Below the pieces are notes generated by a model, which was given only the letters and a program-made list of their open reading frames with translations, ran no database searches and was not told the DNA's origin. Shown here one piece after another: positions 7,540 to 21,071 of a stretch of DNA of 21,948 bases. The stretch is from positions 1 through 21,948 of the forward strand of contig JAWBQF010000038.1 of assembly GCA_038845975.1 (NCBI GenBank), given 5' to 3'. The position numbers and the translations under genes are program-made. How positions within the stretch are numbered: the stretch's first letter is position 1; each line of letters starts with the position of its first letter. Source of the stretch: Candidatus Methanomethylicia archaeon. GTDB lineage: Archaea; Thermoproteota; Methanomethylicia; CALHIW01.

Positions 7540-8110
7540 TATCTTTAATAAGGTTTTTGTAGTTGATTTCTGATGCTTTTATGAGTGTTCCTAGTCTTTT
7601 TTAAAAAAAGGGATGCTTGTTCTAATTTAGGATTGTTAGGTGATTGATGATGTTTACTGTCCTAGATGTGGCTCTACGAGGGCTAAGAATCATGTGCCTC
7701 TACTTAGATGTTTAATACGTATAATATTTCATAGTTCTTGTATGAGAATATCTAATGATAAAACAGGTGTAATATTTCGATTCTCAAAATAATAGATAGA
7801 AGGTTTGAGAGAGGCTCAACCATATACCAGACAGCTTTAGCTCATATCTAAGCTTAATAAGATAAGATACATTCATGAATAAGTAAACACATTCGGATAG
7901 TGAATGTAATGTTATGTAAATAATTGTGGAAATAAAGTATCAATACTAAGACAATAGCTAACAATACATATAAAATATGTAAAAAATAAACCTATACTTA
8001 ACAGCATTCAAACATGTAGAAGATCGAGAAGAATAAGCCCAACCGAAGCAATAACAGAAATTCTAAAACAATTTACAAACTAACAACCACAACAACCTCA
8101 TTAAAGAGTA
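7540..8110 (+). mobile_element. Decayed, internally deleted IS1595-family element with both TIRs
   Basis: 24-bp inverted repeats at 7542-7565 and 8084-8107 (21/24 identical). Broken transposase motifs in the correct order: FRIVR*..DDVYCPRCGS (to 7675), NDKTGVIFRFSK (7754-7789), YIHE*VN, YVNNCGNKVSILRQ*LTIH (~7913-7969), LYLTAFK, CRR..RISPTEAITEILK. Confidence 0.8.
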
Positions 8111-8341
8111 CATTAATTTTTCCATTTTCGTATAGTACTTGATTGTTTAGTAATATGTGTGGTCTTACCTAGTTATATTACGTTATTATGCATACATTTT
8201 TCAACAGGTTCTAACGACTTTTTATATTTGTATGATGTACTCCTAATAAAATCTCTATGATGCTAAAATATTAATTACTATAGTATTTTGCGGAATTTTG
8301 CTAAGCTATAACCTTTACTATAAGACTTTGCCTACATAGTA

Positions 8342-8402: not shown

Positions 8403-9779
8403 GTGTACGAAACACATTTGCGATGTATATACTGTGGTAGAAAATATGAAATATATCCAGACAGAGAACCTTCAGAATTAAACGGAAGACTTCTTTGTCC
8501 TTATTGTTCTGATAAGCATAAAGGCATATATGGATCTCTTGAAGTGGTTTATGATTATGAAAAAATAAAAGAAATACCAGATATCAATAAAATGTTTAAG
8601 CGACCTATTGAGACTATATGGGATTTCGGATTCATGTTACCAACACACATTAAGCCTATAACTTTAGAAGAGGGGGGAACACCGTTATATTTATGTAAAA
8701 GATTAGGGGAATATTATGAAATAGAAAATCTATATGTAAAATATGAAGGAGTAAATCCAACAGGATCATTCAAAGATAGAGAGTCTTCAGTTGCTATTAC
8801 AAGAGCCTTAGAAATTGGAGCTATGGGTGTAACGACCGTAAGCTCAGGTAATGCAGCTTCATCGCTTGCATGCTATGCTGCAAAAGCAGGTCTTAAATGT
8901 CTAGTTTTTGCACCTTCATCAACATCTATCGAAAAGCTTACACAAATAGGTGCTTTTGATGCTGAATGCTTAACTGTGGATGGAACTATTGAGGACGTAT
9001 GGGAGACAATAAATGCAGGGCCTCAATCAAATCCACTAGCAATAGCTCTTTCAAAGTTCATCTATACATACTATTATGACTGTAATCCAGCATTAAATCC
9101 ATACAGATCTGAAGGAGATAAAACTGAGGCATATGAAATTTTTGTAAGTCTAGGTGAGGTGCCAGATTGGGTAGCAGTACCGATTGGTAATGGATGTAAC
9201 CTTATAGGGATATGGAAGGGATTTAAAGAAATGGTAGAAATAGGGATTACAGACAAACTTCCAAGGATAATAGGTGTACAGGTTAAGAGAGGAGATCCAA
9301 TTCTTCAAGCATTTGATAAGGGAATTTTTACATCAATCCCAATTCTGAATCCACCTCACTCAATAGCGGAGGGAATAGTAGCAAGAGATTCATATGATGC
9401 TCCCCGTGCATTAATGGTTATGAAGGAGGCTAAGGCAAAAGCTGTAGCTGTTGATGATGAGGAAATAATAGATGCTTTACTAACACTAGCTAAACTTGAA
9501 GGAATATTTGCTGAACCAACAGCTTCTACAACATTAGCTGCTGTTGAAAAACTACGTGAAGCACATGTCATAGATAAAAGTGATAAGGTAGTATGTGTAG
9601 TTACAGGAGGGGGGCTAAAGGCGGTTAAGGAAGTCTTAACATATTGTCGTAAGGAAGTAAAACCAATAGATAGAATTAAGAGAGGCGATTATAATACATT
9701 ATTTAGAGATGTACAAAAAATAGCTAGAAAGCATTTTCAGACAGGTTCCTCAACAAGGGCGATGAGAAGTGAATTATAG
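8403..9779 (+). CDS. Threonine-synthase-like fold-II PLP enzyme with N-terminal Zn ribbon
   Basis: CIYC...CPYC, TLEEGGTPL, NPTGSFKDR (PLP lysine), SSGNAASSLA, NPYRSEGDKT, PIGNGCNL, GIFAEPTAS, TGGGLK. Several motifs deviate from canonical ThrC, so no gene symbol is given. Confidence 0.85.
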   Translation: MYETHLRCIYCGRKYEIYPDREPSELNGRLLCPYCSDKHKGIYGSLEVVYDYEKIKEIPDINKMFKRPIETIWDFGFMLPTHIKPITLEEGGTPLYLCKRLGEYYEIENLYVKYEGVNPTGSFKDRESSVAITRALEIGAMGVTTVSSGNAASSLACYAAKAGLKCLVFAPSSTSIEKLTQIGAFDAECLTVDGTIEDVWETINAGPQSNPLAIALSKFIYTYYYDCNPALNPYRSEGDKTEAYEIFVSLGEVPDWVAVPIGNGCNLIGIWKGFKEMVEIGITDKLPRIIGVQVKRGDPILQAFDKGIFTSIPILNPPHSIAEGIVARDSYDAPRALMVMKEAKAKAVAVDDEEIIDALLTLAKLEGIFAEPTASTTLAAVEKLREAHVIDKSDKVVCVVTGGGLKAVKEVLTYCRKEVKPIDRIKRGDYNTLFRDVQKIARKHFQTGSSTRAMRSEL

Positions 9780-11166
9780 CTTACCAGTGGTTCATCCAAA
9801 GGAATACTTTAAAAAACAAGATTTAGGAGAAAATTTATCAATAGGTGATGATGGCCAGTTAAGATTCAATAACTTTAAAGTTTCTGACTTCATTAAGAAA
9901 AACGTAAATAGATGTTACGTATCGGATATAACATTACTTAAGAAAAGAGGAAATAGATTAAGAAATGCTTTTTCAAAATATGGCTATGAGTTTAAGCCGT
10001 TCTATGCTGTTAAAGCTAACTTTCATCCACAATATATTAAGACACTAGTTAGTATGGGATTTGGAGTGGAAGTGGCAAATATATATGAATTAAGATATGT
10101 AATTGAAAATTTAAACCTTAAAAACATACCAATAATTTGTAATGGAATAGCGAAGCATGCAAAGTTTAACTCAAATGGTAAGTCACTTGTAGAATACGTA
10201 GCTGAGCTAGAAGGATATGAAGATTTGACAATTAATATAAACTCATACTATGAGGCTAAAGAGCTATTAAAAATCTTAAATAGAATTCAACAAAAGATAA
10301 ATGTTGGATTACGTATAAATATTGAGCTGCATGATAAATTGGTGCATGAAGATTTATACACAGGAGCGGGATATACGAGATTTGGATTAAGAGACAGAGA
10401 CATAGCGAGAACTATTGAGAGCTTAAAAAATTCAAGATGGATAAGAATTTCTGAGCTACATACGCATATAGGATCTCAAATAACCACACTACATGCATTT
10501 AAAAAAATGTCTAAGAAACTTACTGAAATACTTTCTAAAATCAAGAGCAGATACGGTATCAATATAGAAAAAATAAACTTTGGTGGGGGGGTAGCGGTTA
10601 ACTACATTAAGAAAAAAGCAAAGTCTATTGACTATAGTGAATTTTACTGTAACTACAATGTAGAAATGTGGGCTAAGGCCTTAATTGACCCTATTTCAAG
10701 AGAGATTAAAAATGAAAAACCCATACTTGAAGTTGAAGTTGGACGCTGGTTAACAGCCCCGACAATGATCTATCTTGTTAGAGTAGTTGATAAAGTTAGA
10801 GTATCATCAAAATTTAAATCGTATCTTAAGGACGCTGATGAGTGGCTTATAGTAAATGGAAGCGCTATAACCGATCTTCCAGATATAGTGTTACTAAAAC
10901 AATGGTTTGAAATTGTAAATGCATCAAAAGTAGGAGAACCGTTAACAAAATTTTATAATATAGGAGGAGTAGCTTGCGACTCAGGAGATGTATTTGCATG
11001 GGGTAGAGATAGAACTGGACCACGAAAGCTTCCTGAAACCAATGTTGGAGATGTTTTAGCAGTTTTAGACGTTGGGGCATATCAATTACCACTAAGTAAT
11101 AATTATAACTGCTTACCTAAACCTAAGGTGTTTGTTATTAATGATGGGTATGTTATCTCTGATTAA
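9769..11166 (+). CDS. Fold-III PLP decarboxylase (Orn/DAP/Arg family) with arginine-decarboxylase-like motifs
   Basis: YAVKAN, IICNG, RFGL, HTHIGSQI, NFGGG, EVGRWL, NGSAITDLPDIVLLKQWF, ACDSGD, VGAYQ..LSNNYN. The GTG start overlaps the upstream gene's end by 11 bp. Confidence 0.85.
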   Translation: MNYSLPVVHPKEYFKKQDLGENLSIGDDGQLRFNNFKVSDFIKKNVNRCYVSDITLLKKRGNRLRNAFSKYGYEFKPFYAVKANFHPQYIKTLVSMGFGVEVANIYELRYVIENLNLKNIPIICNGIAKHAKFNSNGKSLVEYVAELEGYEDLTININSYYEAKELLKILNRIQQKINVGLRINIELHDKLVHEDLYTGAGYTRFGLRDRDIARTIESLKNSRWIRISELHTHIGSQITTLHAFKKMSKKLTEILSKIKSRYGINIEKINFGGGVAVNYIKKKAKSIDYSEFYCNYNVEMWAKALIDPISREIKNEKPILEVEVGRWLTAPTMIYLVRVVDKVRVSSKFKSYLKDADEWLIVNGSAITDLPDIVLLKQWFEIVNASKVGEPLTKFYNIGGVACDSGDVFAWGRDRTGPRKLPETNVGDVLAVLDVGAYQLPLSNNYNCLPKPKVFVINDGYVISD

Positions 11167-11264: not shown

Positions 11265-12866
11265 CTAATTACAAACTCCACAGGAGCTACATGTACTAGG
11301 ACATGGTTGAGTAAACAGTGCTAACGTCATTTTATAATATTCTGCTTTTAAGAAATCAATAGAAATACCATTATCAATAATATTAAATAAAGGGTTTTCA
11401 TTAATATTAACAGTCAGCATCCTTGAATAATCATGAATATTTAACCTTAGCCATCCAATTAATGATTGCCAATTTACTAAATTACTAGCTAAAATGTTAG
11501 TAGATAGTAATTCTGATAGTTCAGAGGTGCCTAGTGATAATATATGTTCTAAACAACCCATAGACCACGATCCTATACTGATACTTATTTTCTTGCTTTT
11601 TAGGGGTTTTAATATTTTAGTCTTTTTGAGATATTCCTTCCTACTTATATAGGGAACCCACTGCATTGGTGTATAGGGCTTGGGAATTAAAGGATTTACG
11701 CTTAATTTTAGCAATCCTTTAAAATTCTCTAAGATCTTACTAGAAATAGTGTTAATAGCCTCTATGTCTTTAATGGATTCATTTGGTAATCCAACCATAA
11801 AATACATTTTTAAACTTGGAACATTGTTTCTTTGAAATAATTTAGCAACATTTAATATGAGGGAGTTAGGAATAGGTTTATTAATCAAGGTTCTTAAGAA
11901 ATTTGATCCACTTTCAGGAGCTATTGTAATAGTTTTTTGACTTCCTTTTAGTAGGAAACTTATAATATCCTCATCTAAAACATCAATCCTAAGTGATGGA
12001 GTTGAGAAAAATAGACCCTTTGACAATATAAGTTCACATATCTCCTTAAATTTTGGATGATCAGATGCTGAAGTGCCAACTAAAATGATTTTGTTAATTT
12101 TATGATTTTCAATAGCTTCATCGATTATTTTTTCAATTTTTTTAATGGATCTATAACGTGGGGGGCGATATATATAACCTGAAATACAGAATCGACATCC
12201 ACGTCCACATCCTCTTGAAATCTCGAGTAAAAATGAGTTGCTAAATATTGGTTTTGTTGATTTATCATACATTCTAGTTAATACCTGAATTGTCGGATAA
12301 AAAGCGTCATCAATATTCTCAACCCAGACTCTCTTAGTTTTATTTCCAACTTCTGGTAAGTAAAGCCCAGTTATAGATGAAAAATCAAGAAAATCACGTT
12401 TAATATTCTTTAATGATAAAGCTCTCTCGATAAACTTAGGAACTAGTACCTCGGCTTCACCTATGAAGAAAATATCTATAAAGTTTGATAAAGGAAGGGG
12501 GTTTTCCATTACACATGGTCCGCCAGCAATAATAATTGGATGACTAGTATTTCGTTTCTGTCTATCTACTGGTATCTTTGAATTAATTAAAATTTTAAAC
12601 ATATTTATGTAATCAAGTTCAAATTGTAAAGTAAATGCTATAATGTCAAACTTAGATAGTGGTAATTGAGATTCGAGAGAAAAAGTATTCTCTAGAAAAA
12701 ACCTTTCACATACCACATTTTCATAGCTATTGAAAAGGTTATAAATATAATGCAATGCTAGACATGACATGCCGATTCTATATTGATTTGGGTAGCATAA
12801 AGCTACTTTTAAATCAGTCCTTCTAATATTTTTCTTTACTATGTTATCCTCCTTTACTACCTTCAC
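11265..12866 (-). CDS. Radical SAM protein with B12-binding-like N-terminal domain (TIGR03960/COG1032-like), function unknown
   Basis: YPNxYxIGMS, SLESxxPLxxFDIIAF, AGGPC, EISRGCGRGCRFC (CxxxCxxC), APESGS, YFMVGLP, PKPYTP, C-terminal CxxxCxxCGVC. Confidence 0.85.
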   Translation of the reverse strand: MKVVKEDNIVKKNIRRTDLKVALCYPNQYRIGMSCLALHYIYNLFNSYENVVCERFFLENTFSLESQLPLSKFDIIAFTLQFELDYINMFKILINSKIPVDRQKRNTSHPIIIAGGPCVMENPLPLSNFIDIFFIGEAEVLVPKFIERALSLKNIKRDFLDFSSITGLYLPEVGNKTKRVWVENIDDAFYPTIQVLTRMYDKSTKPIFSNSFLLEISRGCGRGCRFCISGYIYRPPRYRSIKKIEKIIDEAIENHKINKIILVGTSASDHPKFKEICELILSKGLFFSTPSLRIDVLDEDIISFLLKGSQKTITIAPESGSNFLRTLINKPIPNSLILNVAKLFQRNNVPSLKMYFMVGLPNESIKDIEAINTISSKILENFKGLLKLSVNPLIPKPYTPMQWVPYISRKEYLKKTKILKPLKSKKISISIGSWSMGCLEHILSLGTSELSELLSTNILASNLVNWQSLIGWLRLNIHDYSRMLTVNINENPLFNIIDNGISIDFLKAEYYKMTLALFTQPCPSTCSSCGVCN

Positions 12867-18989: not shown

Positions 18990-19169
18990 ATTGAGTCACT
19001 TTACTTCAAGTAAAAGATTCTAAATTTAAAAATTTAACGATAAATAATGTATCTAAAATTATTTTAGTTAGTAGATAATGAACAATTATAGTTTAAAGTG
19101 ATTTCAGAATATTTAACTTTATGATAGTTGTAAAATCAATTTCCAGAAATATTTTTAATAAGTACTAAA

Positions 19170-19382
19170 CTAGTAAACTTTTATTGCATATTTTCCATTT
19201 GCATTCTTTTTTAATTTTTTAGCTACTTCAGAGTTATCCTTATCAAGTATTATAATAAGTCCTTCATACTCGATTGAAAAATTTACTGATCCACAAACAG
19301 GACACTTAACAACTCCGCTTTCTACAAGATAATTACACTTTCTACATGCTTTAAATGTTATGACTTGGCCCTTCTTAGACAT
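19170..19382 (-). CDS. spt4: Transcription elongation factor Spt4 (RpoE'')
   Basis: KACRKC...CPVCGS, EGLIIILD, SEVAK, GKYAIKV. Confidence 0.93.
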   Translation of the reverse strand: MSKKGQVITFKACRKCNYLVESGVVKCPVCGSVNFSIEYEGLIIILDKDNSEVAKKLKKNANGKYAIKVY

Positions 19383-19403
19383 AAATTAATACTTAATTTT
19401 GGT

Positions 19404-19419
19404 TTATTAAAGTTTATTA
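19404..19419 (-). promoter_or_regulatory. Putative TATA box for a (near-)leaderless spt4 transcript
   Basis: Minus strand reads taataaac-tttaataa, with the box 22-29 nt upstream of the ATG at 19382. No SD is visible. Confidence 0.4.
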
Positions 19420-19692
19420 TTAGACTAAAGGTATAGTATATTACCATTAATTTAATTGCACTTGTTAAAAACCAGTTAAGTTAAATCCTTTATTTCTTTC
19501 ATTTATATAGTATTTTGAAAAGCTTTCGCCATAGCAAACTAATGAATACTTCATATTTTAGGTTAATGGTCAATTTAAAAAGCCGCCAATTAATTCATTC
19601 CTTTTTAGCATAGATAATCGACAGACAACTAACTGATTGCTTGTGTTTGTTTTGTTTGCATCTAGTGTTTACGTGTTTTTATGTTAGGTTGT

Positions 19693-19712
19693 AAGGCTTT
19701 GTTAACTTAAGC
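19693..19712. repeat. Family-A terminal inverted repeat copy
   Basis: aaggctttgttaacttaagc is the exact reverse complement of 108-127. The next ~30 bp resemble the interior of 6672-6731. Confidence 0.75.
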
Positions 19713-19757
19713 CATTTATTGCATATACTTATCATATCTAAGTGGCTCCATAAGTAT

Positions 19758-20043
19758 TATAGCTGATTAGATTGATCCTTCCCTCTAGTCTCAATTATAG
19801 ACGTTGGAAAGAAAGTTGCACCAATATGTTGAGTTATTCCCCCAGCCTCTCTTAAAGCTACACTAGTCCCTCTAATTTTATCCAATAAAGGTCCTGAACT
19901 AGTATTGAAGAGTACGTATTTAGAGGGGGAAAAATGCTTCCACACATACTTACTCCCTCCAACTTATACTCCCCAATATCCTAGAGAAAACACTTAAAAT
20001 TACTTAATTTACAATAGAAAATCATATAGCTGATTAGATTGAT
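19758..20043. repeat. Perfect 19-bp direct repeat pair (19758-19776 and 20025-20043) enclosing 248 bp
   Basis: tatagctgattagattgat occurs at both positions. Confidence 0.9.
19787..19888 (-). pseudogene. infB: Isolated fragment of translation initiation factor aIF5B/IF-2 (G-domain, switch I)
   Basis: [34 protein letters not shown]. Similarity is lost on both sides; the GHVDxGKT P-loop and the DTPG motif are absent. Confidence 0.9.
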
Positions 20044-20046
20044 TTA

Positions 20047-20816
20047 CTAATTGTTAGATTAGTAGTTCTTGTATGTGTGGCGATTTTGGTTATGTAGACT
20101 TTTTATAGTTATTAGGGTGTTTACTCATAATTGGCTTTATGTATATAGCCTTATAGAGATCATTCTATATTAGCTTTTCACGGTTTTACTAAGGCTTTTA
20201 GCTTATTGGAAAGGATTTAGGAGTTAGTAGGGTTTGATGATTGCTTCCTTGTTCTGATTATATAATCTTGATAGACTTCTAGCTGTAGGGCTAAGTTAGT
20301 AATGCATTATTGAGTAGTAGCATGATTGTTGGTGTATATGTTACATTAATATGAATGGTAATTTAACTATATTTATAGATTTTATGGTATCCTGGTATCG
20401 ATAAGCCTACTACTGTAAGACTAGAATAAGTATTTTAGGAAATGGTTTAAGACTAAGGAAAGAAGACTTAACTCTAAATCTATTTAATAGCTGGTATTTC
20501 ATTATAAAGAATTTTTAAGTCTATAGGAAGTCCAGCTAGCCCTTCTATAAGATTAAGTAGGCTTACAAATCTTAATGAAACCAGTTAAGCTGATAAGCTT
20601 CATAAACATACCATCAAATTAATAATTCATCAAGAAATACTCTATGGTGAAATACTTAGGATATCAGAAAGGACTGTAAATACTGATTACTAATAAGCTT
20701 AATACAAATATTCATAGGGCTAAAGCTAAACAAAATTAAGATAGAAATAAGCTAGTACTAAGCAAAATCCATAACAATACAACACAATTAAACTTTAGAG
20801 TAAAACTAACAGTACC
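20047..20816 (+). mobile_element. Highly decayed IS5-like transposase relic (boundaries approximate)
   Basis: Fragments in the expected order: PYRD (20149-20160), HGFTKAF, LPCSDYIIL (~PDYSTL, 20244-20270), IFID (~20380), LYG (~20640), RAKAKQN...LVLSKIHN. Left half G/T-rich, right half A/C-rich. Candidate end taaaactaacagtacc at 20801-20816. Confidence 0.45.
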
Positions 20817-21071
20817 AACATACGACTCCTATATGAATACTCTATGAATAGATTACAAATTTTTATGTTTGGAAACTAATCTTGTAAACATTAATAGATA
20901 ATGAATAATAATTTTTAATTAACACTAACTATGCATTAAGGTATATTGTAAAAACTTAAAATGCCATAGCTCACATCATATAAAATTTATATGTATCTAT
21001 GTTTATAGCCCAGAAACTCAAAAAAGAGATCAATATTATGATTAGTCTATAGAAAGATAAGATTGTACTAT

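Follow-up and report, generated by a model that had tools for sequence, protein, structure and literature searches.

Cysteate synthase/CapA and SbnA are fold-II pyridoxal phosphate (PLP) enzymes, related to threonine synthase (ThrC) or CysK, that swap the phosphate of O-phosphoserine for a nucleophile. In two described systems, a basic carboxy-adduct is formed first and then decarboxylated by a PLP enzyme of the alanine-racemase fold (AR-fold, or fold III). One is the carboxyaminopropylagmatine (CAPA) route, which exists in bacteria (PMC10599626) and, in the account given in PMC13625781, is ended by an arginase-family enzyme; the other is SbnA/SbnH, in which SbnH is the AR-fold decarboxylase (PMC7857480, section 8). 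CAPA uses an aspartate-semialdehyde dehydrogenase-type enzyme and Sbn uses NIS synthetases, and neither of these is a ThrC-like enzyme. Here we analyze two overlapping genes from a Candidatus Methanomethylicia archaeon, one encoding a ThrC-like protein and the other a compact AR-fold decarboxylase, that lie in a 21,948-nt stretch of DNA (contig JAWBQF010000038.1; the whole stretch is called the window). We found no description of a ThrC-like/AR-fold decarboxylase pair in the literature, with supplementary files outside the search.

We propose that this pair is not thrC plus lysA and is instead a horizontally acquired two-gene PLP module, in which a decarboxylase resembling arginine decarboxylase (ADC) is joined by a ThrC-like replacement enzyme at the agmatine node (probability about 0.5). 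The decarboxylase would be the cell's ADC, making agmatine or a close basic amine, and this agmatine would feed the agmatinase-family, SpeE, deoxyhypusine-synthase (DS)-family, and TiaS genes of the same genome. The ThrC-like enzyme would most likely carry out an elimination or replacement on a phospho-amino acid, with an amine partner linked with the agmatine node; one such reaction would be the transfer of a carboxy-aminoalkyl group onto agmatine. Should the decarboxylase indeed produce agmatine, it would represent a further independent archaeal solution to arginine decarboxylation beside pyruvoyl PdaD and the SpeD-derived enzymes. It would also close a gap in annotation for Atabeyarchaeia and this hot-spring lineage, in which such proteins now carry the labels lysA or "hypothetical".

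The decarboxylase family and its active site

The decarboxylase has both Pfam domains of the AR-fold decarboxylases (PF02784, 87.4 bits; PF00278, 36.6 bits) and a complete catalytic set, namely K82 (YAVKAN), H233 (HIGSQ), G272-274, E323/R326 (EVGR), C403-D404 (CDS), and Y438 (GAYQ), which together place it in this superfamily. For both proteins we used the score against the cut-off of a curated model as the test of family membership. The decarboxylase falls below the cut-offs of lysA (TIGR01048; 202.7 versus 297.9), DokD (168.9 versus 700), both speA models (TIGR01273, 113.5 versus 624.1; NF003763, 115.1 versus 369), and nspC, the carboxy(nor)spermidine decarboxylase (TIGR01047; 33.5 versus 409.05), and it fails all of the curated models, FslC included. 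A word-indexed search returned 35 proteins at E <= 2.1e-59 (P0003-P0037, the window's P0003 included), and the next match scored 122 bits at 27% identity. Apart from the window's close kin, the listed relatives are 38-45% identical to the decarboxylase, and their named sources are Atabeyarchaeia, Njordarchaeia, Freyarchaeia, Jordarchaeia, and Theionarchaea. When a 22-member profile was compared to 1.84 billion cluster representatives, four proteins scored 668-751 bits and the fifth 222 bits. In genome contigs, a scan with the single decarboxylase protein gave no relative and a profile scan did. Judged by these searches, the decarboxylase belongs to a small, isolated, and rare archaeal family, which makes up a new clade within a superfamily already known.

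The trees reported here are quick single-model searches. In a 76-row tree, the 22 family rows are all monophyletic (support 100) on a branch of 0.54 that lies outside every row labelled as diaminopimelate decarboxylase (DAPDC), and the family is weakly sister (SH-aLRT 78) to SpeA-type ADCs, one of which is a compact form of 501 aa. With this compact protein (P0256) the decarboxylase shares 28% identity over 433 aa. The likeness to SpeA extends to the fold, the catalytic set, the I(I/V)CNG and C-D-S motifs, and the P-D of the specificity helix, and SpeA forms the nearest clade in the tree. However, the decarboxylase, at 465 aa, is without the N- and C-terminal extensions and the helical insert of SpeA and stands in a separate clade. 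An "ancestral" form of SpeA without the four-helix bundle is described in PMC13625781. The best sequence and fold matches among solved structures are to DAPDC (LysA) and DokD (1twi, E 3.8e-31; 6n2h, E 9.9e-27), but the decarboxylase scores below the cut-offs of these families, is without RPxxY and CES, and falls outside the DAPDC rows. An AlphaFold model of the decarboxylase (pLDDT 78, pTM 0.83) matched DokD, the M. jannaschii DAPDC, and SpeA about equally in Foldseek (TM 0.75-0.78), so fold alone can't settle the substrate. In the protein atlas, both proteins fall only in generic "threonine synthase" and "diaminopimelate decarboxylase" clusters.

The active site is more informative than the fold. 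According to section 8 of PMC7857480, lysine/ornithine decarboxylase, ADC (D480), and carboxyspermidine decarboxylase bind the basic side chain through an Asp on the specificity helix, the Asp adjoining the catalytic Cys binds the side-chain amine, and R343 of DAPDC binds the distal carboxylate of diaminopimelate (DAP). The motifs of the new family are I(I/V)CNG, C-D-S, and a specificity helix of the form S-A-x-T-D-x-(P)-D-x-V. Aligned SpeA proteins have IICNG, CDS, and S-[IL]-P-D-[ST]-W, and aligned DAPDCs have RPxxY and C-E-S, neither of which is found in the family. In the window's protein, D372 of DLPDIVL (LPDIV) aligns with the Asp of S[IL]PD[ST]W and C403-D404 aligns with the CDS of ADC. 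Thus, the decarboxylase has the SpeA-type combination of an Asp on the specificity helix and an Asp beside the catalytic Cys. The specificity-helix Asp of the aligned SpeA ADCs is residue 471/482, which by numbering, and not by structure, is consistent with equivalence to D480 of V. vulnificus. Based on the ICNG, C-D-S, and LPD motifs, we infer an amino acid substrate of the arginine type, with a basic side chain. That the decarboxylase acts on some basic amino acid is highly probable, and that the substrate is L-arginine and the product agmatine has slightly better than even odds.

The ThrC-like protein and its linkage to the decarboxylase

The ThrC-like protein has a PALP domain (PF00291, 242.1 bits) and shares with ThrC (TIGR00260; PDB 2zsj and 1uim) the PALP fold, the PLP lysine (K124 in GSFKDR), and an N-terminal zinc ribbon as in archaeal ThrC, although the gap between the Cys pairs of this ribbon is longer than in canonical archaeal ThrC. 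It scores above the TIGR00260 cut-off (193-193.9 versus 167.1 bits) and fails the specific ThrC models (NF006050, 244.6 versus 303; NF004170, 227.2 versus 421). It also scores far under the models for cysteate synthase (TIGR03844; 65 versus 324.9) and SbnA (TIGR03945; 55.3 versus 349.95). In a structure model of the protein (pLDDT 82), the top fold matches are all ThrC; CapA2 (9k3c) is a lower, full-length match (TMq 0.70).

The substrate loops set the ThrC-like protein apart. Instead of the canonical STGNTS, NSxNPxRxEGQKT, and TIATAIRIGNP, it carries SSGNAA, PALNPYRSEGDKT, and SIAEGIVARDS, and the motifs of its subclade are SSGNAA, YDCNPALNPYRSEGDKT, and SIAEGIVARDSYDAP. Compared to ThrC, the STGNTS loop has Ser and Ala for Thr, PALNPYR stands for NSxNPxR (Pro-Ala for Asn-Ser before NPxR), EGDKT for EGQKT (Asp for Gln), and SIAEGIVARDSYDAP for TIATAIRIGNP (Glu for the Thr of TIATAI). 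An alignment with canonical ThrC also places an extra helix insert of ~15 residues at ~205-225, before CNPALNP. Only R235, N232, and the PLP lysine K124 are kept from the canonical loops. The substrate-loop residues of Thermus ThrC bind phosphate and carboxylate, and the residues lost here include phosphate binders. Acidic residues replace neutral ones in the subclade at D239 (for Q) and E323 (for T), and D329 and D332 are also acidic. As a speculation from these residues, the acidic substitutions and the retained Arg may fit a phospho-amino-acid donor and a cationic acceptor.

In a 74-row tree, the ThrC-like protein falls in a clade of 14 rows (14/14 monophyletic, support 100) composed of a group with the window's protein and its Atabeya-type relatives (97) and a Thermoplasmata-labelled group (99, 7 rows). 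This clade is nested in a 32-row clade (99) that shares SSGNAA, EGDKT, and S[IV]AEG. Canonical ThrC proteins, among them another copy from this genome (C1a, 353.2 bits), form a separate clade. The ThrC-like protein thus belongs to the ThrC family broadly defined and lies outside the canonical threonine synthase clade. In a metagenome contig scan with the ThrC-like profile, for which the patterns were too general, we found 80 loci at 31-39% identity; a single locus had the EGDKT motif, and the subclade was not represented. The neighbours of an EGDKT-type gene in one further genome (G080) gave no pathway hint.

We then asked how often the two genes travel together. Among ten loci of the decarboxylase family in species-representative genomes, three have an orthologue of the ThrC-like protein (57-59% identity), and all three are Atabeya-type. 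At each of these, the ThrC-like gene lies directly downstream of the decarboxylase gene on the opposite strand, tail to tail, with 35-48 bp from stop to stop, and the decarboxylases are 40-43% identical to that of the window. Hence, adjacency is kept across phylum-level divergence and an inversion. The other seven loci (one "Bathyarchaeia" and six Freya/Jord) have no ThrC-like gene within 10 kb. Of 400 Asgard genomes, nine hold a member of the decarboxylase family, and exactly three of these hold the ThrC-like subclade as well, adjacent each time; the three are the holders of a decarboxylase that bears the PLP lysine. In 401 genomes of the window's phylum, the window's genome is the only one with either protein: the decarboxylase scores 703 bits versus 224.7 for the next best match, and the ThrC-like protein 751.8 versus 357.5. 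Runners-up of the ThrC-like protein at 337-343 bits were canonical ThrC in the three genomes checked. Because both clades occur in one of 401 genomes of the phylum, and in the same one, they were probably acquired together, and joint horizontal acquisition by this lineage is the most likely origin of the pair. Metagenome contigs of equal size for both genes (11,236, 6,075, 5,542, and 7,275 bp) are only suggestive of more pairs. For Theionarchaea and Thermoplasmata, a cluster look-up gave no locus tags that decide adjacency.

Given this linkage, we put the chance that the ThrC-like protein is functionally tied to the decarboxylase at about even. A conserved partnership with a remodelled threonine-synthase paralogue would point to a further PLP reaction at the agmatine node, and if the ThrC-like enzyme adds a carboxy-aminoalkyl group, this would be a third chemical logic of polyamine chain extension. 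A complex prediction for the two proteins gave a score of 0.00 (mark 0.32), which speaks neither for nor against an association. We found no fused ThrC-like/decarboxylase among long proteins, which is weak evidence.

Arginine decarboxylation and the agmatine node

Eight matches to the ThrC model were found in the window's genome (G000; 2.77 Mb, 93% complete), and the window's gene ranks third among them. A canonical ThrC is encoded at C1:92592-93833 (TIGR00260, 353.2 bits; STGNTS / NSINPFRLEGQKT / TIATAIRIGNP). DapB (DapB_C) was not found in this 93% complete genome, and thus the DAP pathway that a DAPDC would serve was not recovered there. Two small zinc-ribbon open reading frames (ORFs) end in EDWGE, a motif by which we take them to be LysW-like, and lysine is probably made by the LysW route. 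With LysW-like genes present and DapB not found, no DAP decarboxylase is needed in this genome. Therefore, given also the canonical ThrC elsewhere, the ThrC-like protein and the decarboxylase are extra, non-housekeeping copies.

The same genome encodes a second ThrC paralogue (C1:65933-67357; TIGR00260, 211.1 bits; SNGNMG / EAQKT / TIASGI) with a C-terminal extension of ~70 aa that resembles a winged-helix DNA-binding domain.

We next looked for arginine decarboxylases and users of agmatine. In the window's genome, neither PdaD nor a decarboxylase of the aspartate-aminotransferase (AAT) fold (OKR_DC_1) was found. Arginine decarboxylases have also arisen from SpeD paralogues, according to work cited in PMC13625781. 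The genome has a single SpeD-family gene, which passes the model for S-adenosylmethionine decarboxylase (AdoMetDC) and is nearest the SpeE-adjacent (AdoMetDC) type of a complete relative, G008 (46% identity; 39-42% with the other type). At least two SpeD-family matches are present in 23 of 30 class relatives; in two of these, the second match is a fragment. Genes that could draw on agmatine are present, namely two agmatinases above the TIGR01230 cut-off, SpeE, two DS-family genes, and TiaS. TiaS requires agmatine. An MttB-family (trimethylamine methyltransferase-like) gene (C27:34178-35638) lies 0.6 kb downstream of one agmatinase homologue, on the opposite strand.

The other genomes with a lysine-bearing decarboxylase are the three Atabeya genomes (G402, G407, and G408) and the genome of locus L011 (G401); several of the genomes compared are metagenome-assembled, with completeness not established. 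In each of these four, the family member is the only PF02784 protein, and PdaD, SpeD, SpeE, and OKR_DC_1 were not found. Thus, no other ADC type was found in any of the five genomes with the lysine-bearing form. All four have an arginase-family gene adjoining a DS-family paralogue (coordinates in Table 1), and each Atabeya genome has three DS-family genes. These pairs resemble the agmatine-dependent SpeY/SpeB pair of bacteria, which as described in PMC13625781 converts agmatine to homospermidine. Of 291 Asgard genomes sampled for PdaD, 129 gave a match; the nine family holders are all outside those 129, and five of them were explicitly without a match. Since the holders of the lysine-bearing form have no other recognisable ADC and yet have agmatine users, arginine decarboxylation is the simpler role, and on the simplest reading the lysine-bearing family members would be the arginine decarboxylases of their genomes.

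Several observations weigh against this proposal. The sister placement of the family to SpeA is weak, and the decarboxylase fails every curated model, speA included. Only two independent lineages show the adjacency, the three Atabeya genomes being closely related to one another. In G401, the decarboxylase is present and no orthologue of the ThrC-like protein was found (best match 249.4 bits versus 751.8-798.5 for true members, in a genome whose completeness is not established), and hence the link with the ThrC-like protein is not obligatory. The window's genome has one more AR-fold decarboxylase, at the C7:72048-74464 locus (lysA, 288.5 versus 297.9; DokD, 277.7 bits), which could be its ADC. 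We rank it lower because its specificity helix has an Arg and no Asp. The gene for this C7 decarboxylase overlaps an upstream DUF711 gene by 16 nt. Neither the Atabeya genomes nor G401 gave a TiaS match. The six Freya/Jord members (L014-L019; P0026-P0033) have Ala for the PLP lysine (YALAAN versus YA.KAN), as well as HIGTQ for HIGSQ, and may be either pseudoenzymes or an unusual catalytic form. Three genomes that hold such members (G403-G405) have no AAT-fold ADC or other AR-fold decarboxylase, yet have TiaS, and PdaD was not found in the Freya/Jord-type holders G403, G405, and G521. In G403, the only Freya/Jord genome examined for SpeD, there is a single copy next to SpeE. This pattern could reflect another ADC, imported agmatine, or an unusual working of these proteins, and each of these would weaken the gap-filling argument. 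Hence, failure to find another ADC is by itself no proof that the family supplies agmatine.

What else could the pair be? The sequence-only reading had joined the two enzymes in a linear pathway. There, the ThrC-like enzyme would couple an amine, be it agmatine, a diamine, or guanidine, to O-phosphohomoserine or O-phosphoserine, and the decarboxylase would remove CO2 from the adduct, giving an aminopropyl or aminoethyl amine independently of decarboxylated S-adenosylmethionine (dcSAM). Aspartate semialdehyde would not be needed either. The overlap of the genes here, the adjacency kept in Atabeyarchaeia despite inversion, and a co-occurrence that is perfect for the lysine-bearing decarboxylase in 801 genomes of two phyla are all in keeping with such a pathway. 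The Atabeyarchaeia, without SpeD and SpeE and with three DS-family genes, would profit from a dcSAM-independent aminopropyl route, and the acidic residues D239, E323, D329, and D332 of the ThrC-like protein would suit a cationic nucleophile. The Asp residues of the decarboxylase pocket are as in basic-substrate enzymes, including carboxyspermidine decarboxylase (PMC7857480, section 8), and the bacterial CAPA route is a precedent (PMC10599626). However, the G401 decarboxylase has the same specificity-helix and Cys-loop motifs and no ThrC-like orthologue beside it or elsewhere in the sequence available, which argues that the substrate of the decarboxylase is not made only by the ThrC-like enzyme. 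An ADC would still be required to make agmatine, and no other one is recognisable; the search for a fused protein, weak evidence in itself, gave none; and with an AdoMetDC-type SpeD and SpeE the window's genome has no need of a dcSAM-independent route. The proposed order, from ThrC-like product to decarboxylase substrate, thus lost ground, and we consider it unlikely. In a related scheme, the ThrC-like enzyme would use O-phosphohomoserine (or O-phosphoserine) as donor of a 3-amino-3-carboxypropyl (or 2-amino-2-carboxyethyl) group to an amine such as agmatine, and the ADC-like enzyme would decarboxylate both arginine and the adduct, yielding, with an arginase-family ureohydrolase, spermidine-type polyamines without dcSAM or aspartate semialdehyde. 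We know of no fold-II enzyme shown to perform gamma-replacement with an amine. This amine extension is a similarly doubtful prospect, and if true it would explain how polyamines are supplied to the DS-family enzymes of Atabeyarchaeia without SpeD and SpeE.

The two genes could also be independent neighbours, a decarboxylase for arginine or another basic amino acid next to a second threonine synthase or an unrelated co-transferred enzyme. Against our proposal and for independence, the ThrC-like protein passes TIGR00260 (193 versus 167.1) and folds like ThrC, its Thermoplasmata-labelled sister group (7 rows) shares no equal-sized contig with the family decarboxylases listed, the decarboxylase family occurs without it in G401 and the Freya/Jord genomes, and the genes are convergent in Atabeyarchaeia and so are not in one transcript there. 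Set against this, the adjacency outlived divergence to 40-43% (decarboxylase) and 57-59% (ThrC-like) identity plus an inversion, the genes overlap in the window, the ThrC-like subclade was never seen without the decarboxylase in the 801 genomes searched, and a canonical ThrC is present both here and in G402. We therefore regard independence as improbable. An ordinary thrC plus lysA pair is far less probable still and is largely refuted. It agrees with the best curated matches by name, which is how the sequence-only reading expected automatic annotation to call the genes, and with the source names of relatives and the protein atlas names. But the decarboxylase reaches only 202.7 of the 297.9 required by lysA and is missing RPxxY and CES, DapB was not found, LysW-like genes are present, a canonical ThrC lies elsewhere, and both proteins stand outside the canonical clades. 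The sequence-only reading had taken both proteins for non-canonical extra paralogues and had seen a decarboxylase unlike DAPDC with motifs in common with ADC, and the gene census, the model scores, the trees, and the motifs bear this out, as do the separate canonical thrC and the LysW-like ORFs that it suggested looking for. Adjacency in other genomes, which it had also raised, held at three of three loci in Atabeyarchaeia and failed at the other seven of the ten family loci. The two outcomes it had named as speaking against itself, placement in the canonical clades and lack of co-location elsewhere, did not come about, as a second, distant lineage carries the pair.

Gene structure and surroundings

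The pair has the structure described in the sequence-only reading, with two plus-strand genes that overlap by 11 nt (Table 1). A purine-rich stretch, GGGCGATGAG, lies just 5' of the decarboxylase GTG, and together with the overlap it is compatible with translational coupling of the two genes. Both GTG starts, and with them the overlap, are credible because close homologues begin with Met at the equivalent positions (P0105 for the ThrC-like protein; P0004 and P0006 for the decarboxylase). The deviant motifs reported earlier for the ThrC-like protein (SSGNAA, CNPALNPYRSEGDKT, and SIAEGIVARDS, with the insert) are likewise present.

Table 1. Coordinates of the gene pair, of associated features in the window, and of arginase-family/DS gene pairs in other genomes
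Feature	Location	Strand	Description
ThrC-like gene	8403..9779	+	458 aa, GTG start, fold-II PLP enzyme of ThrC family
Decarboxylase gene	9769..11166	+	465 aa, GTG start, compact alanine-racemase-fold (fold III) PLP decarboxylase
11-nt gene overlap	9769..9779	+	Decarboxylase GTG at 9769; ThrC-like TAG ends at 9779
Zinc ribbon of ThrC-like protein	8424..8510	+	C8, C11 ... C32, C35
Dispersed repeat pieces	7542..8128 (7542-7690 and 7782-8128)		1-kb spacer 5' of pair
Arginase-family + DS paralogue pair	G402:C1:10495-12396
Arginase-family + DS paralogue pair	G408:C1:11581-13437
Arginase-family + DS paralogue pair	G401:C79:14-1800
Arginase-family + DS paralogue pair	G407:C207:1-1354

The neighbours in the window are replication factor C (RFC) subunits, ribosomal S3Ae, a DHH/RecJ-like protein, Kae1/Bud32-like ORFs, a 2-hydroxyacid dehydrogenase, and a radical SAM protein. 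In line with the isolation noted earlier, no asd, hom, thrB, or dap gene and no other threonine, lysine, or polyamine gene lies beside the pair in the window, and no sulfonate or siderophore gene is near it. The radical SAM protein (533 aa, with a Radical_SAM_N2 N-terminal domain; 11265-12866, minus strand) faces the decarboxylase gene tail to tail, 98 bp from the stop codon of the latter, and is probably unrelated to the pair because it is not beside the pair in the Atabeya loci. Elsewhere, the neighbours of the decarboxylase gene at L011 and at the Atabeya and Freya/Jord loci gave no pathway hint except for an arginase-family gene 2.7 kb upstream in Freya/Jord. The Freya/Jord decarboxylase genes, at ~2.7 kb from this arginase-family gene, are preceded by a YjeF/Nnr gene and followed by a gene for a Ras-like GTPase.

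The sequence-only reading had placed an IS1595 relic upstream of the pair. We could not confirm this label: the 50-aa CPRCG frame at 7640-7789 matches neither a transposase nor an IS1595 family in Pfam at E <= 0.01. The 1-kb spacer does contain pieces of dispersed repeat: 7782-8128 is 74-81% identical to at least four other contigs, and 7542-7690 matches several more. Three copies were inspected, none with a transposase gene beside it; the pieces may be what is left of a mobile element.

Rfam and tRNA scans of the window found nothing. Among sequencing runs, 18 rows carry the window or part of it, from nine studies and with labels of hot-springs metagenome or coded organisms; nine of the rows are possibly the source, and no RNA run is listed among the 18. 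Finally, a stretch of ~2 kb in the window (18990-21071) has no ORF of at least 80 aa, no Rfam family, and no tRNA, and pieces of it recur in the genome, one of 151 bp at 95% identity on C9 and one of 105 bp at 100% identity on C58.

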